A stretch of 64,000 bases of DNA, taken from an uncultured virus (IMG/VR IMGVR_UViG_3300008113_011532). Its lineage: Duplodnaviria; Heunggongvirae; Uroviricota; Caudoviricetes. The stretch lies in IMG/VR virus record IMGVR_UViG_3300008113_011532, one strand, 5' to 3'. How positions within the stretch are numbered: the stretch's first letter is position 1; every line of letters starts with the position of its first letter. The notes below the pieces were generated by a model. It saw only the letters and a list, made by a program, of their open reading frames with translations. It was not told the DNA's origin and searched no databases. The position numbers and the translations under genes were made by a program. Below are positions 1,541-61,640 of this stretch, piece after piece.

Positions 1541-3682
1541 ATGGCAGATAGCAAGGCGAAGAGGAAGTTCTGGAAGAAACCAATCGGCATAAGCAAAGAT
1601 AGAGTAGAGTTGGGCATAGGGGATATGCTCAAACTAAACGTCACCGGAATCAAAAGAACCGACTCATACGGCAATCCAGTCGCCATAGTTGACAAATCCG
1701 GACAGAGGTTCGAACCAGGTTTCACACCGGACAGCGTCTACGCGGTAGAGGAAAGCTCGGACAACCTGGCACCCAACGGCTGGTACGGCCACCTCATCGA
1801 CGCACACTTCGACAGCGAGAACTTCGCCAAGATGAAGAAGATAAGCGCACAGAAGAAGTACAACGACAAAAGAGACACCCTTCAACAGTTCGGCGACTGG
1901 AGGACAGACTACTTCCTACACGACAACCAGATAAACCAGAACTCACCGATACTGATGACCGACGGTCTCAGGAACGCCCCGTACACGATGTTCTCGAACC
2001 CAAGCAAGTACCACACTTCTTACGAGAACCAGGATCCGGTCATCTACGCATTCGACATAATCATAGACGCACTAAGCTCGCCGCTTCTGAACGGATCGAT
2101 AAGCGACTTCCTTGCACTCTACCCGAACGTGAGCGAACTGCAGTCGCGAAGGATAGTGTACCACGACTTCAAGAAGCAGTTCGAGAAGATCTTCAAAACG
2201 AAGGGCACGATACACTACGAACCAGGGTACAACCCGGGCCCTTTGATGTCCGACAGACAGAACGGAAGCCTTCTAAGCGGGCAGGCCGAGGCGGCGGCGA
2301 CAGGGCAAAGGCTCACACGAGGAAAGAAGGCCTACCTCGGACACTACCTGTACAAGATAGAGGGACTTGACAAACTTGTCGAGGCAAACACGGGCGCAGA
2401 GAACAACTACCTTGTAGACTACGGCAAAGATCTAATAAAGCTCACATTCACCGAAGACGTGACCGGTACTCTGTCGGCACTGGCACACATGTACAAGCTA
2501 CTGTACTGGTCAAGACCGAACGGAAAAGGCCTCGTGCCGGAAAACCTACTCAGGTTCAACTGCGACATAGTGGTCTACGAGATGAGGAACTTCAACAGGA
2601 TTAGGCCGGCCATGGCGTCTGACGGGAACTCGACAGGAAAGCTCGAGACGCTACGCGACAACGTATCGAGGTACATCTACTCACTCAAGGAGTGCCAGTT
2701 CTACTTCGACAAGATGGCACACGACTCGATAATCGACATGGGGGGCACTCCGAAGACATTCGACGCGTTCGACGTCAGCTTCGACTTCAAGTACTCAACA
2801 CTGAAGTACGAGAAGTGGGTGTCAGACCCTAACCTATTCGGCAAGTACGTAGGATACAACAACGGCGCGATCTGGAAGGTGGGTAACAAAGGCGCCAGGC
2901 TCTCCCAGAACTTCACAGTCGGGCGAGAAGACAACACGACGGACCAGACAGTGGCAGGAAACACAGGTACCGTAAGGGACTCATCCGTGCCGGTATTCTA
3001 CACTTCAGACACTAACAGCCTCGGCGAGCCAGGCGTAAAGGAAATCGAGAGGATAAAGACTTACATCAACGATCCTGTCAAAGAAGAACTGACGAAGAAG
3101 AAGGACACGGCACCTGCGGACACCAAGGCGAAAGACGTTGACCAGACCGTATCGGCACCAACAACCGTTGCGGCAAGCAACGAGGACGGACAGGGAAAGA
3201 CACAGGACAACGGCGAGAAGGAAGAGTCATTCTTCGACAAGTTCAAGGAGAAGTCGAAGAAAGGCGCAGCCAAACTCGCCAAGAAGACCGCCAACTTCTT
3301 CATCGACGAAGTCAACAACCAGATAAACATACGCGTACAGATAATAAACAACACGATAAACAACATCAGGAACGCAGTTGGCCTATCCGGTCTAGCAACC
3401 GAGCCAAGGAACGTCTACCCTAAGCCATACGTACCTTACAGCTTCGGAATATTCTTCGACGTCAGAAACGAGCTCTACAACTTCGCAGGCGAGGGAATAT
3501 CCAGTGCACTCGCCGGCTTCGGCAACGTTCTCGATCCGTACCAGGATCCGATGAACCCGAGCCTCAACCCGTTCGGCTCAATAGTTCAGAAATTCAGCAG
3601 CACACCTACGGTTCTAAAAAACAACGCGATGGCAGGACCTCAGACACTGCAAGCAATAATCAAGAAGTACGGCGGTAAGTAG
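1541..3682 (+). CDS. Putative tail/baseplate structural protein
   Basis: 713 aa ORF behind a TATATA motif, next to the gp5-like gene. Confidence 0.45.
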   Translation: MADSKAKRKFWKKPIGISKDRVELGIGDMLKLNVTGIKRTDSYGNPVAIVDKSGQRFEPGFTPDSVYAVEESSDNLAPNGWYGHLIDAHFDSENFAKMKKISAQKKYNDKRDTLQQFGDWRTDYFLHDNQINQNSPILMTDGLRNAPYTMFSNPSKYHTSYENQDPVIYAFDIIIDALSSPLLNGSISDFLALYPNVSELQSRRIVYHDFKKQFEKIFKTKGTIHYEPGYNPGPLMSDRQNGSLLSGQAEAAATGQRLTRGKKAYLGHYLYKIEGLDKLVEANTGAENNYLVDYGKDLIKLTFTEDVTGTLSALAHMYKLLYWSRPNGKGLVPENLLRFNCDIVVYEMRNFNRIRPAMASDGNSTGKLETLRDNVSRYIYSLKECQFYFDKMAHDSIIDMGGTPKTFDAFDVSFDFKYSTLKYEKWVSDPNLFGKYVGYNNGAIWKVGNKGARLSQNFTVGREDNTTDQTVAGNTGTVRDSSVPVFYTSDTNSLGEPGVKEIERIKTYINDPVKEELTKKKDTAPADTKAKDVDQTVSAPTTVAASNEDGQGKTQDNGEKEESFFDKFKEKSKKGAAKLAKKTANFFIDEVNNQINIRVQIINNTINNIRNAVGLSGLATEPRNVYPKPYVPYSFGIFFDVRNELYNFAGEGISSALAGFGNVLDPYQDPMNPSLNPFGSIVQKFSSTPTVLKNNAMAGPQTLQAIIKKYGGK

Positions 3683-3703: not shown

Positions 3704-5926
3704 ATGCCAAGAAAAGAGATATCCATAGTCGAGTCAGGTAAGACCTACTTGGGAGTTGTCGAGGACAACAAGGATCCAGAGAGACAATGCCGGTGCAAGA
3801 TACGTGTAGTAAACGTTCACGATGGTCAGAACAAAGACGGCAAGTACGAGATAGAGACAAAGAACCTGCCTTGGGCGAAGCCCTGGAAGGACCTAAACGG
3901 CAACGCGTCGAACGTTCCTGACCTGGGCAAGGTGGTCGTCGTCGTTTTCGAGAAGGCCAAGACCAACAGCCCAGAGTACATCTATTCCAACCACTACAAC
4001 GTAAACCTGGAGAAGAAGATGGCGGCGATTACAGAGGCCGACTACCTTTCGATGAAGTCTCTCCTTTTCGACCACAAGACACAGATTTACGTCAACGACA
4101 CCGAGGGCCTGAAGATGGACCACAAGTTCAACAACATAAACATCACCGAGAAGGCCATAGACGTCAACCTGAAGGACAACTTCGGAAAGCTAAGCCTCGG
4201 AACACCAAACGCGACACAGCGCGCGATACTCGGCGACAACTTCATGCAGTGGTTCGACGCATTCCTCGACCTGTTCGTGCAGCAGGGTGCTCTGATAGGC
4301 AACTTCGGCGCTCCGGTTATAAGCTCACCACAGCTACTCTCTCATATAATGCTCTACCAACAGCTAAAGGAACCAAAACTGCTTTCAAAGAACGTGTACA
4401 TTGTCGACAACGACTACGTCAAAAAGCAGACAAGGGTGGCCGACGCCACCGTCGGTGACAACTGGGAGTCCACCGTCACGAACAACGAGCTGACAAAGCA
4501 GGAGCCGGTGACCTACAACTCGGTCGCAGGCGCATCGTCGACGACCTTCGACAAGCCAGCGGATACACAACCTAAGGCAGACGGAACAACGCAGACATCG
4601 GATACCAAGCCACAGACGACCGAGACGCCACCTAAGAAGGACGTGAACCCTGACGCCAGGACAATTATACAGCTGATGAAGGACAAATCCTACACGTTGT
4701 ACAACGAACAGCTAAAGCTAAACATAGTGGCAGTCAGAAACCAGTGCCTGAAAAGCGGAGACAGGTACACGGACTCATTCTCCGACGACCTCTACGTCAT
4801 GTGGCTCAACGAATCAGCCGAGTGGGAGGTCTCAAAGTTCAAGTTCTCGACCGTACCTGGACTCGAGTTCACACTGACCAGGTCGATGATGCAAAACGGC
4901 ATGGATGCACTAGGAAGACGTACAAAGATACCAAACACGTTCGATAAATTCATCAACAAAAAGGTATACTCAAAGATGATAATGAGCGCAATAGACAGCG
5001 ACGAGAACTCAAAAGTCCTCACACCATCACAATACCTCGACACGTTCCAGCTGACAAACAAGGAACTTACGACCAAATCCGGCGCGTCGTTCCTGTTCTA
5101 CGAGGACGACAACGTAAACTCACCAAGCTTCACACCGAGAAACCTTGCAAAACCGAAGACAATGCCTTACAACGTAGTGATAGGCAGAGGATTTCCGGGC
5201 GGTAAGAACGTAGGTTTCTGGGGAATGTTCGCACGACAGTGCTTCTCGACCGAACCGGAACTCAGCGAGTTCTTATCACTCTGCCAAAAGCACGTCGAAA
5301 AGCACGGAAACAGCATAACATACACGCTCGTAACTAAGAACGACTGGACCAAGGCAACACAGAACGCCACAGTCAACAAAAACGATCCTGGCACGGATCC
5401 AGAGACCGCGGCAAACCCACCGGAAGAGAAGGCCGCCGCCGAGGTCAAAGACAAGCCAGCAGGAAAACCTGCCGAACTGAAGAATTCGACCGACGTGAAA
5501 GCATTCCAAATACTCGCAAACAAAAGCGGCGAGAAAGTGAAAGAGGACGGCAGCTGGGGACCAGAGTCTAACGCAGCATGGGAGAAACTGAAAGAGGCAT
5601 ACTTGAAAAAAATAGGATTTGTGAGCAACTCAACTATAAGACTCTGCGCATCGAGGCTTTATCCATACGGCAAGGTCGTGAAGCAGCCAGACGGAACTTA
5701 CATCTACCAGTCGCCATTCAACAACAACAAGTACACAATAACACTTTACTCGAACGAAAGGTTCATGTTCTACGACAACCTGCTACAGAAGTCAATCGGA
5801 ATGGGATCGTTCAGTGACGCGTGCCTCGAGATGAGCGCGACCGTAAACGGAAGCAAATTCGTACAGAAAGGACCCAACGCCTGGGACAACATCAGGAAGA
5901 TGCTGACGAAGGTAAAGAACGCCTAA
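3704..5926 (+). CDS. T4 gp5-like baseplate hub/spike protein (N-terminal OB-fold) with long C-terminal extension
   Basis: YLGVVEDNKDPERQCRCKIRV...LPWA...VPDLGKVVVVVF matches the gp5/VgrG OB-domain pattern. Confidence 0.75.
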   Translation: MPRKEISIVESGKTYLGVVEDNKDPERQCRCKIRVVNVHDGQNKDGKYEIETKNLPWAKPWKDLNGNASNVPDLGKVVVVVFEKAKTNSPEYIYSNHYNVNLEKKMAAITEADYLSMKSLLFDHKTQIYVNDTEGLKMDHKFNNINITEKAIDVNLKDNFGKLSLGTPNATQRAILGDNFMQWFDAFLDLFVQQGALIGNFGAPVISSPQLLSHIMLYQQLKEPKLLSKNVYIVDNDYVKKQTRVADATVGDNWESTVTNNELTKQEPVTYNSVAGASSTTFDKPADTQPKADGTTQTSDTKPQTTETPPKKDVNPDARTIIQLMKDKSYTLYNEQLKLNIVAVRNQCLKSGDRYTDSFSDDLYVMWLNESAEWEVSKFKFSTVPGLEFTLTRSMMQNGMDALGRRTKIPNTFDKFINKKVYSKMIMSAIDSDENSKVLTPSQYLDTFQLTNKELTTKSGASFLFYEDDNVNSPSFTPRNLAKPKTMPYNVVIGRGFPGGKNVGFWGMFARQCFSTEPELSEFLSLCQKHVEKHGNSITYTLVTKNDWTKATQNATVNKNDPGTDPETAANPPEEKAAAEVKDKPAGKPAELKNSTDVKAFQILANKSGEKVKEDGSWGPESNAAWEKLKEAYLKKIGFVSNSTIRLCASRLYPYGKVVKQPDGTYIYQSPFNNNKYTITLYSNERFMFYDNLLQKSIGMGSFSDACLEMSATVNGSKFVQKGPNAWDNIRKMLTKVKNA

Positions 5927-7758
5927 GCAGAACCGTTAAGGAACTCGTCTATAATCTTGATTTCCTTTATTTTGTACTGATAGATAATCTTGGTTATGTA
6001 CTTAGTTGTCTCCATCTCACACACCTGCCTTCCTTCGCCAGTAGAGTTGTTCGACACAAGAACACAACCGAGAGAGTCCTTCTTACTACCACCGGCGTGT
6101 ATCCTGATACCGGACTGGCCAGGAACACTATTGATCCTCGGAAGTACCCCGTTCCTCTCAACGGCCTTCTCAGAATCAGGGAACTTGACGTAGTGCTTGG
6201 CGAGCCAGCTCTTGCTAGTAGAGTCGAGCGAAAGCGGATAAGTGCCGTGCTCGATACACCTCGAGTTCTCGTTCTCCTTAGTACCCGTGTGCGGCTTCTC
6301 CTTAGCACTTATGTAAGGATGCTCGCAGGTGACCGCGATCGCCTTATTGTTGAAGTACAAGGTTCCGGTGGTACCCTTACTGGAAGTCTTCTCACGAATG
6401 AGCGTAAGCTGGTGGTATGACTTTATCTGCTTCTCGGATGATGCAGACAGCTTGGTCATGCTCCTGGCGATGACAGGTGTCTTGATGTCGTTGATAGTCG
6501 TACCGGCGGTGTCGATACCTGAAGCATCGTCGGAGCTAGTCGGAACACCCGGCGGCTTCCAGTTCTTATACTCGTCAGGTTCGTCAGGCATTTTGAGGTA
6601 CTCCTCCGGGAACTCAGGCACGTTATCCGGCTCTCCAACGTAGGCACCCTCCGTGTACTCTGGATCCAGCGTGTCGTAATCGGATATGCCGTCACCCTCT
6701 AACTGCTCTTCTCCGATGAACACGAAGAACTCAGGCAGATCCGTTTTTGCGGTTATGCTTATCTTAGAATCCGCTATCGATATACGTATTGGCAATTTAG
6801 TAACTTCTTGCGTCACGCCGGAGACCTCAGAAGGCTTCGTATCTTCATTGACTGGCGTGACCTGACTGGTGTCCGTCTTCGTGGGATCCTTGTACGGCAC
6901 GTCAGTGACGTTGGGCTTGTCGACGAGCGCGACCTTCTTACCGTCGGTGTAAAGCTTGTTCCAAACACTGAGCACATAATCTATTATAGTAAGGTCGCTG
7001 AACTTATCAGCGCTTCTCGCACTCGTGCCGTAGAAAGATGCCTGTGCAGGATTGACGGTGAAGAAAAGATTCTGTTCACTGAACCCCGAAACAAACTTAT
7101 CGCCTTTGGCGAACGTTATCAGTCCCTTACCGTCAGGCGGTATAACGTCGACGGATTTGAGGAAGTCATAGACCGACTTGTCATAATCGTCATTCACGTC
7201 AACCTCTCTTCCCCAGTTGTCGCTATAACGCGTACCACCCTCAGTGTAGCTTTTCCTCTGCCACTTGACCTGAATTTTCGCACCGTTGTTGAGGTAGTAT
7301 TCGTCGAACCCATAGTTACGCAACTTCGGCGAGTACCCCGGAGTGTAGTTGTCCTCAACAATCTCGAAGTAGGGATAGCCATCGAACTTTCGCTGCTTAG
7401 CGAGCACTTTGTCCATCTCACCGACCGCCGAGTAACCCTTCGTGCCGAGGCCGTCCATGAAATTGAGGTCAGTGTATAAGTAACCCCAATTAGTCTCATT
7501 CTCCGGCGTCTCAAGCTGCTTTATTATGAATAGCAGGAAGTCCAACAGAATTCCGTCGTCCCCCGGCATCAGAGGATTATCCAATCCGTCGTAAACCTTC
7601 TGCTTCTCAGTAACAGCGACGTAGCCCTCATCAATCTTTACGAGCCTCTTCTTTCCCAAGAAACCGGTCTCGTAAATTGATATCTTAAGGTCTACGCCGA
7701 AGTTCTTGTCGTACTTCCTTGGTCTAACCCTAATCGCTTTTATGAACTTGTCGGCCAT
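5923..7758 (-). CDS. Protein with C-terminal DUF5675 (L,D-transpeptidase-like) domain
   Basis: LIRE..TTGTLY..TCE..CIEHGTY..VPGQSGIRIHAGG...DSLGCVLV motif. Confidence 0.7.
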   Translation of the reverse strand: MADKFIKAIRVRPRKYDKNFGVDLKISIYETGFLGKKRLVKIDEGYVAVTEKQKVYDGLDNPLMPGDDGILLDFLLFIIKQLETPENETNWGYLYTDLNFMDGLGTKGYSAVGEMDKVLAKQRKFDGYPYFEIVEDNYTPGYSPKLRNYGFDEYYLNNGAKIQVKWQRKSYTEGGTRYSDNWGREVDVNDDYDKSVYDFLKSVDVIPPDGKGLITFAKGDKFVSGFSEQNLFFTVNPAQASFYGTSARSADKFSDLTIIDYVLSVWNKLYTDGKKVALVDKPNVTDVPYKDPTKTDTSQVTPVNEDTKPSEVSGVTQEVTKLPIRISIADSKISITAKTDLPEFFVFIGEEQLEGDGISDYDTLDPEYTEGAYVGEPDNVPEFPEEYLKMPDEPDEYKNWKPPGVPTSSDDASGIDTAGTTINDIKTPVIARSMTKLSASSEKQIKSYHQLTLIREKTSSKGTTGTLYFNNKAIAVTCEHPYISAKEKPHTGTKENENSRCIEHGTYPLSLDSTSKSWLAKHYVKFPDSEKAVERNGVLPRINSVPGQSGIRIHAGGSKKDSLGCVLVSNNSTGEGRQVCEMETTKYITKIIYQYKIKEIKIIDEFLNGSA

Positions 7759-7771
7759 AGTTTTTCAGTAT

Positions 7772-8296
7772 TTATATACCACCTATTATTATCTTGCCTT
7801 CCTCTACCGATACCGGCGGCCTCGTGCCCCTGTTTACCGTCGGCGGTACCGAAACGTTGTTGCTTAGGAACTTCTTCCTGTTAGGGTCAACCGTAGACGT
7901 TTTGTTCGGATAGGTTATCTTAGATGCGACCCTGTCTACTGAGTACCCAGTGTTCGACTCCTCGTTCGGCCTCCACCTGAAGCTATCGAGGTTGTCCTTC
8001 CTCGGGTAAAGTATCTCCGTGCCGCTAAGAATACCTATAGGGTTGTCTATGTTGTTTATATAAAGAATCACGTCGATGTCCGCATAAAGGTAATTGTCAG
8101 GTCCGTAGATATCCTGCATTATGAGGTCAATCCTGCCCTCAAGCCCAGGCTCGACCTTGTACTTGAAAAGGTCAAACTCGCCACTGAACGCCATCGATGG
8201 TGTGAAAAGATCCACAAGCGCCTGATCACCCCTGTACACGACGAGCGCCTCCGCAAGTGACTTTATGTTCATTTCCTCCATAATTACTATACTCAA
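7772..8296 (-). CDS. gp53-like/LysM-type baseplate wedge protein
   Basis: YKV..EGRIDLIMQDIYG...ILYINNIDNP pattern. Confidence 0.65.
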   Translation of the reverse strand: MSIVIMEEMNIKSLAEALVVYRGDQALVDLFTPSMAFSGEFDLFKYKVEPGLEGRIDLIMQDIYGPDNYLYADIDVILYINNIDNPIGILSGTEILYPRKDNLDSFRWRPNEESNTGYSVDRVASKITYPNKTSTVDPNRKKFLSNNVSVPPTVNRGTRPPVSVEEGKIIIGGI

Positions 8297-28862: not shown

Positions 28863-28973
28863 ATGAAAGCAACAACACTAAATATGGCAATCGTGAGAAA
28901 CTTGATGGTGAATATTACATTATGTAATATTAGACCAGACGAGGGTTCCAGCCTATTTGTGGATGTCGCATAA
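28863..28973 (+). CDS. Attenuator leader peptide 1 (MKATTLNMAIVRNLMVNITLCNIRPDEGSSLFVDVA)
   Basis: 36 codons; the L M V N I T L C N I R block matches the downstream tRNA set; contains gacgagggttc complementary to the terminator 5' arm. Confidence 0.85.
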   Translation: MKATTLNMAIVRNLMVNITLCNIRPDEGSSLFVDVA

Positions 28974-28994
28974 GCATTCGTGAAAAGAAACTCG

Positions 28995-29030
28995 AACCCT
29001 CAGTCAAAAAACTGAGGGTTTTTTGTTTTT
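28995..29030 (+). terminator. Attenuator terminator 1
   Basis: aaccctcagt-caaaaa-actgagggtt plus U-tract. Confidence 0.85.
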
Positions 29031-29035
29031 ATAAA

Positions 29036-29116
29036 AGATTGAAAAAGGAAGTTGATAAATGTATTTTAGTTTGTGCTAACTGCCATAGAGAAATACACGA
29101 TGAAATTTCCAAATAA
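29036..29116 (+). pseudogene. C-terminal remnant of an HNH endonuclease
   Basis: Translates RLKKEVDKCILVCANCHREIHDEISK* with no start codon. Confidence 0.65.
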
Positions 29117-29121
29117 CATAC

Positions 29122-29762: not shown

Positions 29763-29832
29763 GCCGCGGCTTAGTGGAAAAGAACCGTCTCTCATAAGGA
29801 CGGAAAAGTGAGTTCGAACCTCATACGCGGCA
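29763..29832 (+). tRNA. tRNA-Met(CAT), atypical short D-arm
   Basis: ccgtct-ctCATaa-ggacgg; T-arm gtgag-ttcgaac-ctcat. Confidence 0.65.
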
Positions 29833-33113: not shown

Positions 33114-33923
33114 TCACGATTGTTGAGTACCATTTACTTTTAAATACTCAATCAGAGTATCAAATTCCATTTCAACTTTTTCTTTTGAGAATCTACCCAT
33201 ATCTTTGATGATGTATGGTTTATAACCACACCTTTCAATTTCTTTCAATTTTATTCTATCTCTATTCTGTACCTGTGATAAAGAATGACCTTCCCTTATT
33301 TTCTCGTAGTGCCACTTACCATTCCACAAAACAGCCAACTTACAATCGTGTATGATTACATCCGCATCCCAACCATTGAATATAGGTTTGTTATTTTCGA
33401 CATTATTGAAGTAATCAGAGCACTTCTCAAAGAACAGAATCTCATTTTTACTCCTACGAACCTGTGTATTAATAGACTTCTCAACCATTTTTCGTATATT
33501 TTCTCTACCCTCATCAGTTTTACATCTATGTTTACTCGAACACGAAATAGAACAAAATAAATTTCTTTTCCTGGACATAGTAATATCGACACCACATTCC
33601 AAACAACTCTTAGCACTTCTCGGTCTTTTTTCACGAACGGTGCCCAAAACCGAATTTCGAATCTTTTCTCGGGTCTCATCACTACGCTCTCTCTTATTCG
33701 CACAACTACGGGAACAATAAACATCCTTTCTCTCAAAGTGAGTGTACTCAACCATATTATCACAGTGTTTACACTTATCGATGAAATCGAATTTTTCCTT
33801 TAACATCCTTATAGATAGTTTCTTCAGAATCCGTTTCAGTTTATAGATGTTTATACCCAACTCATTCGCCATATCTTGTCTACTATAACCAAGCTCTATC
33901 ATTTCCTCAATATGTTCTTTCAT
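33114..33923 (-). CDS. Putative free-standing homing endonuclease (HTH, Zn-ribbons, PD-(D/E)xK/Vsr-like domain)
   Basis: YCSRSC, FCSISC, DAD, WNGKWHY and QNRDRIK motifs; AT-rich and antisense to the tRNA cluster. Confidence 0.7.
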   Translation of the reverse strand: MKEHIEEMIELGYSRQDMANELGINIYKLKRILKKLSIRMLKEKFDFIDKCKHCDNMVEYTHFERKDVYCSRSCANKRERSDETREKIRNSVLGTVREKRPRSAKSCLECGVDITMSRKRNLFCSISCSSKHRCKTDEGRENIRKMVEKSINTQVRRSKNEILFFEKCSDYFNNVENNKPIFNGWDADVIIHDCKLAVLWNGKWHYEKIREGHSLSQVQNRDRIKLKEIERCGYKPYIIKDMGRFSKEKVEMEFDTLIEYLKVNGTQQS

Positions 33924-34024
33924 AAAAAACTTATTTTTAGTTTATATATAAAACTAGATGACCTATGGTTCGATTTTATTTTGGACTACATTTTTTTAAT
34001 CCAGTTCCACTTTATATATACTCT

Positions 34025-34660
34025 ATGATAAAGAAATGGAATGAGTTCTGCCGAATAATCGAATCCGGCGAATACATGGACGACTACCTCGACGCAATCA
34101 ACGGAAGCGGCCACATATACCCGGACGAGAAGGAGAGGCTCTTCATCGGAAAGTCGTTGGACCTACCGAGGGTAAGGATCCTTGACGAGTTCCAGAGGAG
34201 GCTGGTCGAGCAGTTCCCGGGCATCATCATGTTCACATACGGCGGTTCTGTGCTGATTCCTACTTACATCGACGGCAACACAATCGAAGGCGTCGGCTAC
34301 AAGGACCAGGGCGGCAAGCTAGTCTTCCAACAGTTCAGCAACCGATCTACATCATTCATCAGCGACTACGACTTCCAGGACGACCACGACGAGCTTTACA
34401 TGAGCATCGCCGGGGAGATGGCGGAGAACGACGGAAGACCTTACATCGAGGCGGACCGAGACAACGACGAGATTGATCATGCGAGGACAGAGCAGATTTT
34501 GGCACACCTAAGCAAGATGTCCAACGCGGGGTTCTCGGACTTCACGAGGAGGAACATCCCCGACAAAAGGTACTGGGACTGTAAGAGATCCATCGCGGAC
34601 GTTGCCCAGTACATAATCGATAACGATTTATGGGAAAAAATCAAGGCGGAAATAGGATAA
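34025..34660 (+). CDS. Hypothetical protein (MIKKWNEF motif)
   Basis: ATG just after a TATATA motif. Confidence 0.6.
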   Translation: MIKKWNEFCRIIESGEYMDDYLDAINGSGHIYPDEKERLFIGKSLDLPRVRILDEFQRRLVEQFPGIIMFTYGGSVLIPTYIDGNTIEGVGYKDQGGKLVFQQFSNRSTSFISDYDFQDDHDELYMSIAGEMAENDGRPYIEADRDNDEIDHARTEQILAHLSKMSNAGFSDFTRRNIPDKRYWDCKRSIADVAQYIIDNDLWEKIKAEIG

Positions 34661-34722
34661 ATCGAAAAAAAGTTCCTATCTTTACAAAACAAAGGAAACG
34701 AAAACTTATATATACAATACTT

Positions 34723-34815
34723 ATGAAAACTTTCATCAACATAACAGCTATCTTCCCGCAGGATCAGGATCAACCGAAAAGGTTGTGGACTAGCTGCCTA
34801 TTGTCTGAAAGTTGA
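34723..34815 (+). CDS. Attenuator leader peptide 2 (MKTFINITAIFPQDQDQPKRLWTSCLLSES)
   Basis: PQDQDQP block matches the downstream Gln/Asp/Pro tRNAs; ggactagctg pairs with the terminator 5' arm. Confidence 0.88.
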   Translation: MKTFINITAIFPQDQDQPKRLWTSCLLSES

Positions 34816-34835
34816 TAAAGAACTTGAACGATATG

Positions 34836-34868
34836 AGCCCAGTTAGTCTTTGATTAGCTGGGTTTTTT
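34836..34868 (+). terminator. Attenuator terminator 2
   Basis: agcccagttagtc-ttt-gattagctgggtt plus U-tract. Confidence 0.85.
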
Positions 34869-34879
34869 CGTTTATACAA

Positions 34880-34953
34880 TGTCCCGTGGTGTAATTCGGC
34901 AACACGTCTGATTTTGGCTCAGAAGAGTCCAGGTTCGAGCCCTGGCGGGACAA
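34880..34953 (+). tRNA. tRNA-Gln(TTG)
   Basis: tctga-ttTTGgc-tcaga. Confidence 0.9.
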
Positions 34954-34963
34954 CAAAGAAAAC

Positions 34964-35035
34964 TGTCGAGTCGTCTAGTTGGCAGGACACGGGATTTTGA
35001 CTCCCGAGACACAGGTTCGAAGCCTGTCTCGACAA
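34964..35035 (+). tRNA. tRNA-Gln(TTG), second copy
   Basis: cggga-ttTTGac-tcccg. Confidence 0.88.
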
Positions 35036-35049
35036 CTAAAGCAGGAAAA

Positions 35050-35122
35050 GGTCCTGCAGTCCAGTGGAGTGGACGCCGCCCTGTCACGGCGGAGATCGTG
35101 GGTTCGAATCCCATCAGGACCG
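35050..35122 (+). tRNA. tRNA-Asp(GTC)
   Basis: ccgcc-ctGTCac-ggcgg. Confidence 0.9.
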
Positions 35123-35132
35123 CAAAACAAAA

Positions 35133-35206
35133 CGAGTAGTAGAGGAGTGGTTTATCTCGGGTGCATTGGAAGCATCAGCACGCAGGTTCGAATCCTGCCT
35201 ATTCGA
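35133..35206 (+). tRNA. tRNA-Pro(TGG)
   Basis: ggtgc-atTGGaa-gcatc. Confidence 0.8.
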
Positions 35207-35210
35207 CAAA

Positions 35211-35282
35211 GGTCCTGTCGTCCAATGGTAGGATAACCCGTTGTCTGCGGGATGGTTGCGGGTTCGAGCCCCGTCAGGACCG
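35211..35282 (+). tRNA. tRNA-Asp(GTC), second copy
   Basis: cccg-ttGTCtg-cggg. Confidence 0.8.
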
Positions 35283-35336
35283 CGAATATAACTAGGTGTA
35301 GATCAGTTGGTAGATCGGGTGGTTTGGGACCATCAG

Positions 35337-35540
35337 AAAGACCTTACCATTATCTAATGAAAATACTGCACCGAACACACCGACACCTAAAAACTCTTTA
35401 ATTTTTCCAAACTTGCTTTCAAATTTTTCTACATCAAAGGATTCAATAAACTTATTCATATTGTTTTTAACTTGTTCACTAACAATATGTGATCTCATTA
35501 TCAATGCCTCAAAGCCTTTTCTTAATAAGCTTTTTACCAA
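35337..35540 (-). pseudogene. Truncated kinase-like ORF at the edge of the insertion
   Basis: LGVGVFGAVF Gly-rich loop, cut at the tRNA junction. Confidence 0.45.
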
Positions 35541-35605
35541 TACATCATTATTAGATGTTAATTCGTTAAAAAAATAAATATATACTCTAATAAAAAAACA
35601 ATGAT

Positions 35606-36178
35606 ATGAAATACATTAAAACATTTGAGTCTTTCAAATTAAACGAAACACAGGACATGATGTTCATGCCTGTTGATCCAATTAAAGGTGCAGCTGAAGC
35701 TTATTCAGATATTGCAAGCGCTTTAGGTGGGAAATTCCACGAAGCATTGGATAAAGTAGAAGAAGTTGCTGAAGCAGTAGTTGAAGAAATTGGTGGAAAA
35801 GCTTCTGAAGTATTAAGTTCTGTAGAAAGATTCTTCGGAATTCCTGCAGAAGAACTTACTTATGATGCTATTGTAGCTAAATTAGAAAAATCAAACGAGT
35901 CTTTCGTAGACAAATATGATGAAGCAGATCCATATGATGGACATGGAGAAACTATGACGACTCCTTTAAAAGATATAAAAGGAGGTCCTGTTCAAAAGAT
36001 TCTTTCGATACTTCAAAATGTATTTGCCACCAACATCCTTTCAATTGGAGTATTAGGAACTTTTGTTACTTGGATAGCAGGTATAACTGTAAACTTTGCT
36101 GTGTCTATGCTTGTATCAATCGCTGCATTCGTAGTAATACATATTATAAGAAAACTTGTAACTATGGCTACTGCATAA
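35606..36178 (+). CDS. AT-rich membrane protein with MKYIKTFESFKLNE N-terminus
   Basis: 190 aa ORF with two C-terminal hydrophobic helices; codon usage differs from the rest of the window. Confidence 0.75.
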   Translation: MKYIKTFESFKLNETQDMMFMPVDPIKGAAEAYSDIASALGGKFHEALDKVEEVAEAVVEEIGGKASEVLSSVERFFGIPAEELTYDAIVAKLEKSNESFVDKYDEADPYDGHGETMTTPLKDIKGGPVQKILSILQNVFATNILSIGVLGTFVTWIAGITVNFAVSMLVSIAAFVVIHIIRKLVTMATA

Positions 36179-36307
36179 GAAACAAAATTAAAAGAACCAT
36201 TCATTGGTTCTTTTTTTTATGTATAGAATTTTATATATACAAAAAAGATATATTATTTTGCCGCAGGTTCGAGCCCTGCCACCTAGACAAAACGAGTTGT
36301 CACGCAG

Positions 36308-36340: not shown

Positions 36341-36367
36341 AAAAGGCCTCGAATAATCGAGGCCTTC

Positions 36368-52487: not shown

Positions 52488-54278
52488 ATGAGTTCGAAAT
52501 TCTGCAACAAAACACTTCTCAACATAGTAATGACCTTGTCGTTCTCGTTCGTGTTCGCACTGACGAAATTCGTCGTTATGACAGACACCGTAAGTGAAGG
52601 GCCTATTACGAAGACGATCGAGATCACCAGCTTCATAATGATGCTTCCGTTCTTCTACAGGATGGTGAGGCAGTACCTCAGGAGAACTGACGAGATAAAC
52701 CTGCTCAACGCATACACGACAAAGCTCAACAAAACGCTTATTGACCAGTCACACAACCCGTTGTTCTACGAGGGCGACCTGGAGGAAGGCGCCAGGATAC
52801 TCACAAGGGACGTAGTCGAGAACCTTAGAATCGACAGGTGCAGCATATGGCTCTTCAACGACGACGGCGACGCGATAGACCTCGAGATGCTCTACGAGGA
52901 CTCGACGCGTAGGTGGTCCACTGGAGGCAGACTCGACTACAATACACACCCCAACTACTTCATAGAGATACGAAAGAACCCAGTCGTCGTAGCAAACGAC
53001 GCAGAGTCGCACCCCGCGACGGCGTGCTTCACAGAGTCTTATCTCAGGCCAATCGGCATAAAGTCGATGCTCGACGTTCCGATCCTCTTCAGAGGAGTGA
53101 CAATAGGCGTAATCTGCATTGAGAGCCTGACAAAAAGAGAATGGATAGACGCCGAGATAAACTTCGCACAGGTGCTATCATCGCTTTACTCATTCGCGTG
53201 GTCAATCGCCGACGGCAACGACATAAAGAAGAACCTGCTCGAGATTGAGAACTTCATGGACACCGCGGTGCTCGTTTCCAAGACCGACGAGTACGGAAGG
53301 ATCGTGTACGTGAACGACAAGTTCACCGCGGTATCCGGCTGGACAGTACAGGAGGCCATAGGTCAGGACCACCGAATACTAAACTCCGGCGTGCACAGCA
53401 AGGACTTCTGGAAGGAGATGTACGACGTGACCATAAACAAAAGACAGATATGGAACGCCGTCATCACCAACAAAAACAAGAACGGCAAAATCTACTACGT
53501 AGACACATACATAAAAGCAGACTTCGATCCAGAGACCGGAGTACACAAAGGACACACGTCAATAAGGCAAGACGTGACAAAGATCATAGAGGCATCGATC
53601 GAGATAGAGAAGAAGAACACCTACCTCGAGCACGCCGCCAAGATACTGAGACACGACATGCACTCCGGAATAAACACTTACATACCGAAAGGAGTTTCAA
53701 TGCTCACGAAGATGCTGCCACCTGAAATAGTGAAGCAGTACAAGCTCGAGTCAGGCGTTAAACTCATCACCGAGGGGCTCAGGCACACACAGAAGGTCTA
53801 CAAAGGCGTCTACGAGTTCACGAACCTCGTAAAGAAGGACAGAGTGCTCGAGAAACAGAGCCACAGCGTACACGACATACTCAAAAACTACCTTCAGTCC
53901 ACAATCTACAACGACGCGGTCGACATATCCAACGAACTTCCGACCATAGAGGTCAACGAGTCGCTCTTCTGCACGGCGATAGACAACCTGATAAGGAACG
54001 GCCTGAAGTACAACGACAGCGCCAAGAGGATCGTGAAGATATACCACGACGGCGGCGACACCATAGTCGTGCAGGACAACGGCCGCGGCCTCACACAGCA
54101 GGAATTCGAACTATACTCAAAACCATACACGCGAAAGGCGGACCAGAAGGAATCGGGCACGGGCCTGGGCCTCAACATCTGCATAGCGATACTAAAGGAA
54201 CACGACTTCACGGTAACGTGCGAGAAAGCTGAAGAAGGCGGTACCAAGATAAAAATTAAGTACAAGGGAAATGATTGA
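52488..54278 (+). CDS. Membrane sensor histidine kinase (TM-GAF-PAS-HisKA-HATPase)
   Basis: GAF (SMLDVPI..GVIC), PAS (YVNDKF..SG), LRHD, NLIRNG, DNGRG and GTGLGL motifs. Confidence 0.9.
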   Translation: MSSKFCNKTLLNIVMTLSFSFVFALTKFVVMTDTVSEGPITKTIEITSFIMMLPFFYRMVRQYLRRTDEINLLNAYTTKLNKTLIDQSHNPLFYEGDLEEGARILTRDVVENLRIDRCSIWLFNDDGDAIDLEMLYEDSTRRWSTGGRLDYNTHPNYFIEIRKNPVVVANDAESHPATACFTESYLRPIGIKSMLDVPILFRGVTIGVICIESLTKREWIDAEINFAQVLSSLYSFAWSIADGNDIKKNLLEIENFMDTAVLVSKTDEYGRIVYVNDKFTAVSGWTVQEAIGQDHRILNSGVHSKDFWKEMYDVTINKRQIWNAVITNKNKNGKIYYVDTYIKADFDPETGVHKGHTSIRQDVTKIIEASIEIEKKNTYLEHAAKILRHDMHSGINTYIPKGVSMLTKMLPPEIVKQYKLESGVKLITEGLRHTQKVYKGVYEFTNLVKKDRVLEKQSHSVHDILKNYLQSTIYNDAVDISNELPTIEVNESLFCTAIDNLIRNGLKYNDSAKRIVKIYHDGGDTIVVQDNGRGLTQQEFELYSKPYTRKADQKESGTGLGLNICIAILKEHDFTVTCEKAEEGGTKIKIKYKGND

Positions 54279-54702
54279 TTCAATTCTACTGGTGGACGAC
54301 GAGTCCCTATTCCAGGTGGTATTCGACTACTCCTGCAGCCTACTGGACATATCACTCACGCTCGAGTGCATATCGAGCTCAGACGAGGCAGCTGACAGGT
54401 TCGCGGAGTGGATGAAGAACCCGGCAGGAAGGCCTGTCTGCGTCTTCGTCGACCTGAACATCGTCGGCTCGACGTTCGACGGCATAGAGCTAGTGAGGAA
54501 GATCAACGAGGACTACGGAAACCACGTCGTCATCGGAATAGTATCATCGTCAAACGAGCCGGCAGAGCAACAAAGGGCCATGGAGGCAGGCGCGCAGTTC
54601 TGGATTATAAAGAGCGACGACATCGAGCCGAGGCTTCTGGAGTTCAAGAACGACTACGAGGGCTACGTAGACAGGACGCTACCGTTCAAGATATATAAGT
54701 AA
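54271..54702 (+). CDS. Single-domain response regulator (receiver)
   Basis: ILLVDD, FVDLN, DG, VSSS and GAQFWIIK motifs. Confidence 0.9.
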   Translation: MIDSILLVDDESLFQVVFDYSCSLLDISLTLECISSSDEAADRFAEWMKNPAGRPVCVFVDLNIVGSTFDGIELVRKINEDYGNHVVIGIVSSSNEPAEQQRAMEAGAQFWIIKSDDIEPRLLEFKNDYEGYVDRTLPFKIYK

Positions 54703-56411: not shown

Positions 56412-56531
56412 ATGACAACGAACAGCAAACATAAGCATTTTAGTAAATCAAGCAAGTGGTTTAGCAAAAAACCCGAACTTGGTACTGGCAAAGTATTGCG
56501 TTTGTTCTCAGAGGATCTTACGACCATATAG
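56412..56531 (+). CDS. Attenuator leader peptide 3 (MTTNSKHKHFSKSSKWFSKKPELGTGKVLRLFSEDLTTI)
   Basis: K/H/F/W block matches the downstream His/Phe/Lys/Trp tRNAs; gaacttgg pairs with the terminator arm ccaagttc. Confidence 0.85.
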   Translation: MTTNSKHKHFSKSSKWFSKKPELGTGKVLRLFSEDLTTI

Positions 56532-56550
56532 ACAAAACAATAAAAGACAG

Positions 56551-56586
56551 AAACCCAAGTTCACGAGACTTGGGTTTTTTTGTTTT
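56551..56586 (+). terminator. Attenuator terminator 3
   Basis: aaacccaagtt-cacga-gacttgggttt plus U-tract. Confidence 0.85.
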
Positions 56587-60049: not shown

Positions 60050-60121
60050 ATGAAAGCATCTGTAAACATATCAAGCTCATCAAGTCGCTCATCAGCGGCC
60101 GAGGTCCGATTGTGTTTATAG
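60050..60121 (+). CDS. Attenuator leader peptide 4 (MKASVNISSSSSRSSAAEVRLCL)
   Basis: SSSSSRSS block matches the downstream Arg(ACG) and four Ser tRNAs; ccgagg pairs with the terminator arm cctcgg. Confidence 0.88.
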   Translation: MKASVNISSSSSRSSAAEVRLCL

Positions 60122-60144
60122 CTGTCGCATAACGATATTGTATG

Positions 60145-60175
60145 AACCCTCGGAAGAAACGCCGAGGGTTTTTTT
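60145..60175 (+). terminator. Attenuator terminator 4
   Basis: aaccctcgg-aagaaacg-ccgagggtt plus U-tract. Confidence 0.85.
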
Positions 60176-60256: not shown

Positions 60257-60347
60257 GGAGAAATAAGAGCAGTGTGGACTAAGCTCGGCGCACTTGAAAT
60301 GCGTAGGCCCTCGAGGTGTCTGGGTTCGAGCCCCAGTTTCTCCGCCA
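60257..60347 (+). tRNA. tRNA-Ser(TGA)
   Basis: gcgca-ctTGAaa-tgcgt; long V-arm, G73, CCA. Confidence 0.85.
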
Positions 60348-60361
60348 AAAAGTTAAATTAT

Positions 60362-60447
60362 GGAGAGCAAACCAGGGAGGTCCCTGGCACCGCCTGCTAA
60401 GCGAGTGGCCCGTTTTTTCGGGTGGGCTTCGACTGCTCTGCTCTCCG
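60362..60447 (+). tRNA. tRNA-Ser(GCT), 8/4 fold
   Basis: 8-bp acceptor ggagagca/tgctctcc; 4-bp T-stem gggc/gctc. Confidence 0.8.
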
Positions 60448-60453
60448 CAACAT

Positions 60454-60537
60454 GGAAGATGAACTGCAGCGGCCTGCAGCCCTGTCTCGAAAACAGCGGG
60501 TACCTCCGGGTATTGGGATCGACACCTACTTCTTCCG
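60454..60537 (+). tRNA. tRNA-Ser(CGA), 8/4 fold
   Basis: ctgt-ctCGAaa-acag; 8-position acceptor and 4-bp T-stem. Confidence 0.75.
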
Positions 60538-61500: not shown

Positions 61501-61587
61501 ATGAAAGCAACATTCAAAATAGAGGCCATAGGGTATGCGTATGAGGCGGGACGCCACATATCCGGACTGACTTTGTCTTTTGAGTAG
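61501..61587 (+). CDS. Attenuator leader peptide 5 (MKATFKIEAIGYAYEAGRHISGLTLSFE)
   Basis: IEAIGYAYEAG block matches the downstream Glu/Tyr/Ile(TAT)/Gly/Ala tRNAs; cggactg pairs with cagtctg. Confidence 0.88.
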   Translation: MKATFKIEAIGYAYEAGRHISGLTLSFE

Positions 61588-61608: not shown

Positions 61609-61640
61609 AAGCCCAGTCTGAGAAACAGACTGGGCTTTTT
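61609..61640 (+). terminator. Attenuator terminator 5
   Basis: aagcccagtctg-agaaa-cagactgggctt plus U-tract. Confidence 0.88.

Follow-up and report, generated by a model that had tools for sequence, protein, structure and literature searches.

A codon-matched leader as a probable attenuator of phage tRNA genes in a 64-kb viral stretch

The stretch of DNA analysed here, called the window throughout this text, is 64,000 nucleotides (nt) long and comes from an uncultured virus (IMG/VR record IMGVR_UViG_3300008113_011532). It seems to be a fragment of a very large phage genome, because it carries 41 transfer RNA (tRNA) genes, a number reached by ARAGORN as well as by Rfam, together with many orphan open reading frames (ORFs) and auxiliary metabolic genes, and because its relatives are viral contigs of 250-480 kilobases (kb). 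Our subject is a spacer of 219 nt within this window, lying between the end of a 231-amino-acid ORF (34660) and a tRNA-Gln gene (34880), together with the tRNA cassette that follows it; we call the whole arrangement unit F. Read from 5' to 3', the spacer holds a TAnnTTTG-like box, a TTATATATACAA motif, an ORF of 30 codons and a terminator-like hairpin with a run of T. These parts, and the cassette behind them, are the following.

34677..34684, plus strand: element resembling a promoter -7 box, TATCTTTA (relatives carry TATATTTA or TATATTTG)
34706..34717, plus strand: TTATATATACAA motif, 5 nt ahead of the leader ATG
34723..34815, plus strand: leader ORF, 30 codons and a TGA stop (34813-34815), ATG start at 34723, peptide MKTFINITAIFPQDQDQPKRLWTSCLLSES
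34745..34753, plus strand: segment 1, CAGCTATCT, taken from the pair table of the minimum-free-energy (MFE) fold, immediately 5' of the regulatory codons; its predicted partner, in the state with the terminator formed, is segment 2
34756..34776, plus strand: regulatory codons CCG CAG GAT CAG GAT CAA CCG (PQDQDQP), in frame with the ATG at 34723
34787..34796, plus strand: segment 2, GGACTAGCTG, partner of either segment 1 or segment 3 (antiterminator)
34835..34868, plus strand: intrinsic terminator, 14 pairs at 34835-34865, then a T-run to 34868
34880-34954, plus strand: tRNA-Gln(ttg)
34964-35036, plus strand: tRNA-Gln(ttg)
35050-35123, plus strand: tRNA-Asp(gtc)
35133-35207, plus strand: tRNA-Pro(tgg)
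35211-35283, plus strand: tRNA-Asp(gtc)
about 35292..35336, plus strand: 5' part of a sixth tRNA, tRNA-Pro (acceptor, D arm and anticodon arm, anticodon TGG)
35337..36257, boundaries approximate: low-GC insertion of about 0.9 kb, splitting the sixth tRNA after its anticodon arm
about 36258..36288, plus strand: 3' part of the sixth tRNA-Pro (T arm and acceptor strand)
36343..36366, plus strand: terminator-like hairpin, the probable end of the tRNA transcription unit

A preliminary description of this DNA had pointed to a leader with seven consecutive codons for Pro, Gln and Asp at 34756-34776, and the run indeed reads PQDQDQP, in frame within the 30-codon ORF. All seven codons can be read by the tRNAs of the cassette, namely Pro(tgg), Gln(ttg) and Asp(gtc). 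The same description had proposed that 34787-34796 pairs with 34840-34849 in the 5' arm of the terminator. We recovered this duplex between segment 2 and segment 3 (CAGTTAGTCT, 34840-34849) as 10 base pairs (bp) with an energy of -13.7 kcal/mol, two of them G-U pairs (34787-34849 and 34793-34843). The six-tRNA cassette which it had listed stands for five intact genes (Gln, Gln, Asp, Pro and Asp), each called by ARAGORN and by Rfam (RF00005), and the sixth, Pro, turned out to be split by the insertion; when its two parts are joined in silico, the product is called as tRNA-Pro(tgg).

The terminator is composed of a 5' arm (34835-34848, with segment 3), a loop of 3 nt (34849-34851) and a 3' arm (34852-34865, segment 4), and the first tRNA gene, tRNA-Gln, begins about 11-12 nt past its T-run. 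The order of the elements is segment 1, regulatory codons, segment 2, stop codon and segment 3, the end of segment 2 lying 16 nt upstream of the stop and the stop itself 19 nt ahead of the terminator. Segments 1 and 3 are alike, as are segments 2 and 4. The sequence shows the hallmarks of a leader-peptide attenuator, namely a leader ORF, cognate codons, a terminator and an antiterminator exclusive with it, together with a predicted pairing between segments 1 and 2, and it supports the reading given in the preliminary description.

The host signals at unit F fit the phylum Bacteroidota. According to PMC9723704, TAnnTTTG is the Bacteroidota sigma-A consensus at -12 to -5 (the -7 box), and Shine-Dalgarno sites are absent in this phylum. 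The same paper considers leader-peptide attenuation likely for amino-acid operons of Flavobacterium psychrophilum, which makes attenuation plausible in a host of this kind. Judging from the position of the box, transcription of unit F would start near 34689.

We consider it probable that unit F is a ribosome-mediated (leader-peptide) transcription attenuator which gates the phage tRNA operon. The parts of the unit, their arrangement, their conservation and the fit of codons to anticodons can be read from the sequence itself. That the leader is translated, that ribosomes stall on it, which structure is then chosen and in which direction the unit responds is what we infer from the geometry of the unit and from knowledge of the trp and his attenuators. 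In the scheme we propose, RNA polymerase would start at the Bacteroidota-type promoter near 34689, and the leader ORF would be translated while the polymerase proceeds. As long as charged tRNA-Pro, tRNA-Gln and tRNA-Asp are plentiful, the ribosome would reach the stop codon, occlude the segment 2 stretch and hinder its pairing with segment 3; the terminator would then form and transcription would stop ahead of the first tRNA gene. If any of the Pro, Gln or Asp tRNAs became scarce, the ribosome would stall on the PQDQDQP codons and cover segment 1, thereby freeing segment 2 to bind the 5' arm of the terminator (34840-34849), so that no terminator would form and the polymerase would read through into the Gln-Gln-Asp-Pro-Asp(-Pro) cassette. 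The newly made tRNAs would relieve the stall, which amounts to negative feedback, or tRNA on demand. Should the leader remain untranslated, both the pairing of segments 1 and 2 and the terminator would stay in place. The sensed quantity may be either the amount of tRNA or its charging, two possibilities which the scheme does not distinguish.

The arrangement is hardly reproduced by shuffling. When the 219-nt spacer was shuffled 20,000 times with its dinucleotides preserved and all three frames were scored, seven cassette codons in a row never arose (0/20,000), and seven of eight arose once (1/20,000). The 166-nt region of unit F folds better than its shuffles (z = -4.3), and its MFE fold contains the terminator, a 9-bp pairing of segments 1 and 2 and an outer helix of 11 bp which encloses the regulatory codons. 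When the 3' arm of the terminator is removed, the antiterminator (segments 2 and 3) becomes the best fold, and in nine homologues 88.6% of the cells of the segment 2:3 pairing are paired, as compared to 7-42% in slid controls.

Relatives of unit F were sought in two ways. A degenerate pattern of the seven codons matched 46 viral loci, and tRNAs were found at only two, at both of which the leader stands directly before Gln/Asp/Pro tRNAs; the remaining 44 are unrelated coding matches with no tRNAs. To avoid circularity, the second search used the terminator alone and not the leader. On viral contigs it gave a P/Q/D-rich leader together with Asp/Pro/Gln tRNAs at 8/11 loci, three having no leader, and on metagenome contigs a P/Q/D-rich leader at 51/67 loci. 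In all metagenome leader loci with at least 300 nt of downstream sequence (42/42), the first downstream tRNA is Asp, Pro or Gln, and the first four tRNAs of these loci add up to 68 Asp, 44 Pro, 30 Gln and five left unassigned, with no other kind. Three leader loci have no tRNA within 400 nt: at two of them (L145 and L111) an ORF of 210-215 amino acids is inserted between attenuator and tRNAs, and at the third an unrecognised tRNA-like sequence comes first.

Sixteen of the 67 metagenome loci fell under the P/Q/D cut-off. Ten have unrelated ORFs and lack tRNAs, including those of a small-ORF family (KLKDD.YLWTDC) which carries the unit F terminator; three have too little upstream or downstream sequence; one (L085) does have Gln/Pro/Asp tRNAs downstream, but the fixed ORF rule chose an unrelated ORF; and two (L101 and L143) have a Q-poor leader, NPQPKGLNDLDPD, ahead of Asp/Pro. 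Small ORFs of the form M-R/K-K-I/V-I-K-L-K/N-D-D-x-Y-L-W/L-x-D-C were seen at L089, L118, L144 and L146, where they end before the unit F terminator sequence and no tRNA lies within 1.5 kb. At another locus (L084, about 2306-3030), four tRNA-Gln genes are directly followed by an ORF with the HIGH motif of class-I synthetases (MNFIEEKILDKGNL...FLHIGHAKS...), probably encoding a phage glutaminyl-tRNA synthetase which shares a unit with the tRNA-Gln genes. No tRNA array and no match to unit F were found on G001, a 344-kb viral contig obtained through a 553-amino-acid neighbour gene; a search with the 231-amino-acid upstream protein gave one weak partial match (L003), and in the phage collection unit F and unit I (described below) had nothing but tRNA matches.

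Conservation was assessed on 49 distinct leaders, corresponding to 45 distinct peptides. The ATG is kept in 49/49, the second codon is AAA in 45/49, and the reading frame is maintained through in-frame indels. Six core columns behave as follows.

Column 14: P in 44/49 (CCG 34, CCT 7, CCA 3), replaced by Q in 5
Column 15: Q in 49/49 (CAA 42, CAG 7), no replacement
Column 16: P in 38/49 (CCG 15, CCT 12, CCA 8, CCC 3), replaced by D in 8, L in 1, I in 1 and S in 1
Column 22: D in 49/49 (GAT 48, GAC 1), no replacement
Column 25: Q in 49/49 (CAG 38, CAA 11), no replacement
Column 26: D in 40/49 (GAT 40), replaced by P in 9

Replacements in these columns stay within the P/Q/D set in 22 of 25 cases. 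Synonymous codon changes combined with replacements confined to P, Q and D fit selection on decoding and would not be predicted by selection on RNA sequence alone. The core of segment 2, CTA(A/G)CT, is found, at 7-17 nt ahead of the stop, in all distinct leader regions (45/45), and its commonest variants, CTAGCT and CTGGCT, still pair via G-U; the mean duplex energy of segment 2 in the relatives is -11.2 kcal/mol, against -6.7 kcal/mol for shuffles. The C-terminal part of the leader (T/A-N-Y/C-V-F...) is conserved as well, and its codons coincide with segment 2.

Unit F is one of five such units in the window. The other four are listed here with their leaders, terminators and cassettes.

28863-28973, plus strand: leader of unit A, MKATTLNMAIVRNLMVNITLCNIRPDEG..., regulatory stretch ...NITLCNIR..., terminator 28994-29021; cassette downstream Asn Asn Ile(gat) Arg(tct) Ile Cys Thr(tgt)
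56412-56531, plus strand: leader of unit G, MTTNSKHKHFSKSSKWFSKK..., regulatory stretch ...KHKHFSKSSKWFSKK..., terminator 56549-56579; cassette downstream His Phe Lys(ctt) Trp Lys(ttt) His
60050-60121, plus strand: leader of unit H, MKASVNISSSSSRSSAAEVRLCL, regulatory stretch ...SSSSSRSS..VR..., terminator 60144-60171; cassette downstream Arg(acg) and three long-arm Ser-type tRNAs
61501-61587, plus strand: leader of unit I, MKATFKIEAIGYAYEAGRH..., regulatory stretch ...IEAIGYAYEAG..., terminator 61609-61637; cassette downstream Glu Tyr Glu Ile(tat) Gly Ala Gly

In all five, the leader stops 17-22 nt ahead of a strong terminator, and segment 2, which copies the terminator 3' arm, starts 2-11 nt past the last regulatory codon. 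When the codons of each leader were scored against each cassette in a 5 x 5 table, the own cassettes gave 13, 7, 13, 9 and 14, and the other cassettes 0-7. The match extends to isoacceptors: ATA codons stand ahead of Ile(tat) and ATT ahead of Ile(gat), AGA ahead of Arg(tct) and CGC/CGA ahead of Arg(acg), AAA and AAG ahead of Lys(ttt) and Lys(ctt). In the shuffle tests, units F, H and I give strong results (0-2/20,000).

Unit H deserves a separate comment. Its leader is rich in Ser (codons TCA, five times, AGC and AGT), yet ARAGORN calls only a tRNA-Arg downstream. Such a leader predicted Ser tRNAs behind the terminator, and Ser-type tRNAs were then found there by Rfam and by folding.

60257-60344: Ser-type tRNA with a long arm, anticodon TGA, called by Rfam and missed by ARAGORN
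60362-60449: Ser-type tRNA, anticodon GCT, unusual D arm; a long-arm cloverleaf by folding, called neither by ARAGORN nor by Rfam
60454-60537: Ser-type tRNA, anticodon CGA, unusual D arm; a similar cloverleaf with an energy no better than shuffles, called neither by ARAGORN nor by Rfam

Between terminator A and the first tRNA-Asn, a stretch of 100 nt (29022-29121) retains what is left of the C-terminal end of an HNH-like ORF (..CANCHREIHDEISK). At 29763-29832 there is a tRNA-like match, a weak one of 30.2 bits.

The relation between leaders and cassettes was then followed across 17 stretches taken from the window, six related viral contigs and one Cellulophaga phage. The unit finder we used requires a terminator no more than 130 nt away from a tRNA and then takes the longest ATG-initiated ORF ending near that terminator. 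It returned 34 leader-cassette units, examples of which are given below.

Leaders MRTTTQYQQQQQ.. and MTTFTQQYQQQQ.. (QYQQQQQ type): Gln tRNAs only
Leader ..YYYEE..: Glu Glu Tyr Glu Tyr
Leader ..YYYEGE..: Glu, Tyr, Gly, Ala
Leader ..ISIAIIAGGAG..: Ile(tat) Gly Gly
Leader ..SKSSSSRSS..: Arg Ser Ser Ser
Leader ..RSHKHFSKSSKWF..RR..: Phe His Lys Arg Ser Ser Ser

When the cassettes were permuted among the 34 leaders, the observed match was reached in 0/100,000 permutations, the best-of-8 score averaging 5.1 for own cassettes and 2.1 for others. Each leader likewise fits its own terminator arm better (-10.1 kcal/mol, as against -7.5 kcal/mol for the arms of other units; again 0/100,000 permutations). 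Homologous units among the 34 are not independent, which makes these permutations conservative rather than liberal. In one lineage, where the Gln tRNAs lie in a unit of their own, the Asp/Pro leader (NPQPKGLNDLDPD) has lost two of its three Gln codons. Whatever their regulatory codons, all leader families start alike (M-K/T-T/A-..-N-I), and this shared N-terminus suggests duplication and recoding of one ancestral leader, or else may reflect a common requirement for initiation.

Units of the same design, with sequences unrelated to unit F, occur in the Cellulophaga phages phi17:2 (phi17:2_18) and phi4:1.

Leader MKIQRLHLQELEQP / MKIQRLHLQELEQPIISGGTGV with terminator: Pro Glu Gln His Leu Leu Arg downstream
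Leader MKTNYCTYNNSNWSFSY... with terminator: Tyr, Ser, Asn, Trp, Phe downstream
A third ORF (..TKTGITVIDKTKGARAYLGDTVIG) with a hairpin, recognised by eye: Ala, Ile, Gly, Met, Asp, Thr, Val, Arg downstream

The third ORF was not picked by the unit finder, as it has no ATG and its hairpin has a larger loop. In the phage collection, the Cellulophaga unit is confined to seven records of two phage species. One P/Q/D unit and one poly-Gln unit are present in an uncultured phage of 634 kb (GenBank LR745206.1). The unit finder returned nothing from Salmonella phage pSal-SNUABM-04 (11 tRNAs) and Gordonia phage Sixama (29 tRNAs), just two genomes.

Several observations weigh against the attenuator reading of unit F, or at least against parts of it. 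Segment 2 starts just 10 nt past the last regulatory codon, and a ribosome stalled on the last of these codons would mask it. Since Bacteroidota lack Shine-Dalgarno sites, a start at the ATG (34723) is not a matter that can be judged from sequence. The state with the terminator reaches -45.6 kcal/mol, as compared to -36.5 kcal/mol for the enforced antiterminator, so thermodynamics leave the switch undecided; the antiterminator is also the MFE structure of the nascent RNA even without a ribosome. The pairing of segments 1 and 2 is short and is found in just 6/9 MFE folds of homologues, where segment 2 pairs with a segment 3-like stretch immediately 5' of the regulatory codons, and RNAalifold, applied to nine aligned homologues, recovered the terminator alone (its helix kept in 9/9) and no such pairing. 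Compensatory changes could not be scored within the F family, whose segments 3 and 4 were fixed by the pattern used in the search. We found no reason for the conservation of the N-terminal Asn/Ile codons of the leader. Among the sister units, the codon match was reached in 446/20,000 shuffles for unit A, a moderate result, and in 1,462-3,370/20,000 for unit G, a weak one. Finally, the match is imperfect: some leaders (G004 and G008) have kept their Gln codons even where the Gln tRNAs are placed in another unit or beyond a second terminator.

Four other explanations have to be considered. One of them retains translation of the leader and reverses the sign of the response: a fast ribosome close to the polymerase would block the hairpin, and shortage would lead to termination, that is, to positive feedback of the pyrBI type. 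The stop codons of all five window units do lie at a constant short distance from the terminator. On the other hand, every leader stops short of its terminator and, given the established size of the ribosome footprint, a ribosome that has reached the stop codon should leave the 5' arm exposed; moreover, a reversed response leaves no role for segment 2, which is conserved in 45/45 leaders and prefers its own terminator. We regard such translation-coupled anti-termination as improbable. Less probable again is a micropeptide with a function of its own, whose transcript would end at the terminator while the tRNAs are expressed independently. The conserved C-terminal part of the leader would suit it, but the conserved codons are those which coincide with segment 2, the composition of the peptide tracks the downstream tRNA set in many unrelated leader families, and the gap of only 11 nt between T-run and first tRNA leaves no room for a promoter.

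A sensor made of RNA alone, in which the anticodons of tRNAs, free or uncharged, would pair with codon-like triplets in a T-box-like manner and with no translation, could account for triplets that match the anticodons of the downstream tRNAs. Decoding by ribosomes is nevertheless indicated by the invariant ATG, by a frame kept through in-frame indels and by a stop at a fixed distance, and likewise by the synonymous third-position changes and the replacements within the P/Q/D set. Rfam at its gathering threshold detects no T-box or other known family here, and we know of no precedent among T-boxes for 7-11 adjacent triplets serving 3-5 tRNA species. We give this sensor slightly less credit than the micropeptide. 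As for chance, that is, an ordinary terminator of the upstream gene (33965-34660) combined with a spurious ORF in the spacer, terminator-like hairpins are indeed common in the region (16 found, 7.4 expected). The shuffle tests, the diagonal leader-cassette matrix, the 49 distinct conserved relatives and the 42/42 fitting cassettes speak so clearly against it that we find it scarcely credible, the least so of the four. The leader-peptide attenuator with negative feedback remains the reading we prefer.

Some further features of the locus and of its surroundings need to be mentioned. With up to one mismatch, the TTATATATACAA motif occurs nine times in the window (at 8052, 12658, 28847, 33942, 34706, 36231, 55391, 56398 and 61428), as compared to 0.19 expected. 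The copies stand 1-18 nt ahead of start codons, which belong to ordinary genes as well as to leaders A, F and G, and the motif may be a phage-specific promoter-like element or an initiation context or signal. The copy at 36231 lies within the insertion that splits the sixth tRNA, just 5' of the 3' part of this tRNA. Two ORFs are found at the insertion, one at 35292-35540 (minus strand) and the other at 35606-36178 (plus strand, MKYIKTFESF..., of the MKxIKTFxSF type), and the insertion may represent an intron, a mobile element or a dead gene. A similar insertion, with an MKNIKTFGSF... ORF, splits a different tRNA in one relative (L050, about 5980-6427).

The tRNA region also holds, at 33114-33923 on the minus strand, an ORF of 269 amino acids, with 35% GC and rich in Cys-x-x-Cys pairs, for which Pfam gave no match at 1e-5; a similar Cys-x-x-Cys ORF lies in the tRNA array of L050 (about 4150-4790). 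These two ORFs and those inserted at L145 and L111 are probably homing-endonuclease-like mobile genes. The sequence TCTTTGA(C/A)AT is present in three copies (31334, 31671 and 32233), all on the plus strand and all within the tRNA region, two of them about 20-30 nt ahead of a tRNA without a leader, and it is possibly a second type of promoter or a processing signal. Elsewhere in the window, genes for a GAF-domain histidine kinase and a response-regulator receiver lie side by side (52488-54699), and NAPRTase, transaldolase and M42 peptidase genes are found.

Beyond unit F, we propose that phage tRNA genes form a modular, demand-driven regulon, in which each cassette is induced by shortage of its own tRNA species through a codon-matched leader, the leaders deriving from one ancestral attenuator, and that such regulons are widespread in huge Bacteroidota phages and either arose independently in, or spread to, the Cellulophaga phages. 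To this wider proposal we incline only slightly. If it is true, attenuation is extended from amino-acid metabolism to tRNAs, with a direct feedback loop on the sensed molecule, which bears on why phages carry tRNA genes and on whether those genes are regulated. Our results suggest that many large phages meter their tRNA output by ribosome need, cassette by cassette. Such phages may answer depletion of host tRNAs, whether by codon-usage mismatch, by host shut-off or by anticodon-nuclease defences, only when and where an answer is needed, and this would link the units to the ways in which phages cope with defences and shut-off. The composition of a leader can also serve as an annotation aid, as it predicts unrecognised tRNAs downstream (the Ser tRNAs missed by ARAGORN are an example), and the units would be compact natural sensors for chosen tRNA sets. 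Cellulophaga baltica with phi17:2 or phi4:1 makes a cultured pair in which the idea is testable.

As for known systems, a full-text literature search, which did not cover subscription journals, found no account of tRNA genes, whether of phages or of cells, under the control of a leader peptide; PMC3082878 and PMC5179076, in the parts seen, are not relevant to such control. An Rfam scan of the whole window gave 41 matches at gathering score, all of them RF00005 (tRNA), with no His, Trp, Leu or Thr leader family and no T-box.

The classical leader-peptide attenuators are trpL, hisL, leuL, thrL, ilvL and pheL of E. coli and Salmonella. Like unit F, they combine a short ORF, in which cognate codons are clustered, with an intrinsic terminator, with four RNA segments, the first resembling the third and the second the fourth, and with a stop codon placed so that a ribosome which does not stall favours the terminator. 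Unlike them, unit F would control tRNA genes and not biosynthetic enzymes, the product fed back being the very molecule that is sensed; the phage codon clusters mix 3-6 amino acids, corresponding to the tRNA set of the cassette at the isoacceptor level; and the units are phage-borne, exist in many copies per genome and use Bacteroidota-type signals without Shine-Dalgarno sites. In E. coli pheST, whose leader is pheM, leader-peptide attenuation acts on a gene of the translation apparatus. As proposed for unit F, the supply of charged tRNA is sensed there by stalling and a component of tRNA charging is controlled, but the controlled product is a synthetase protein for one amino acid, not tRNAs. 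T-box riboswitches work without translation: the uncharged tRNA itself is bound, by a specifier codon together with the T-box sequence. They share with unit F the sensing of a specific tRNA, the choice between terminator and antiterminator and the control of genes for translation supply, whereas the leader of unit F has the signatures of a translated ORF.

The amino-acid operons of F. psychrophilum, for which PMC9723704 proposes leader-peptide attenuation, share host phylum, promoter type (TAnnTTTG) and the proposed kind of control with unit F; those are host biosynthetic operons, whereas unit F concerns phage tRNA genes. What we propose is thus a known mechanism, leader-peptide attenuation, with a new class of target and a new logic.

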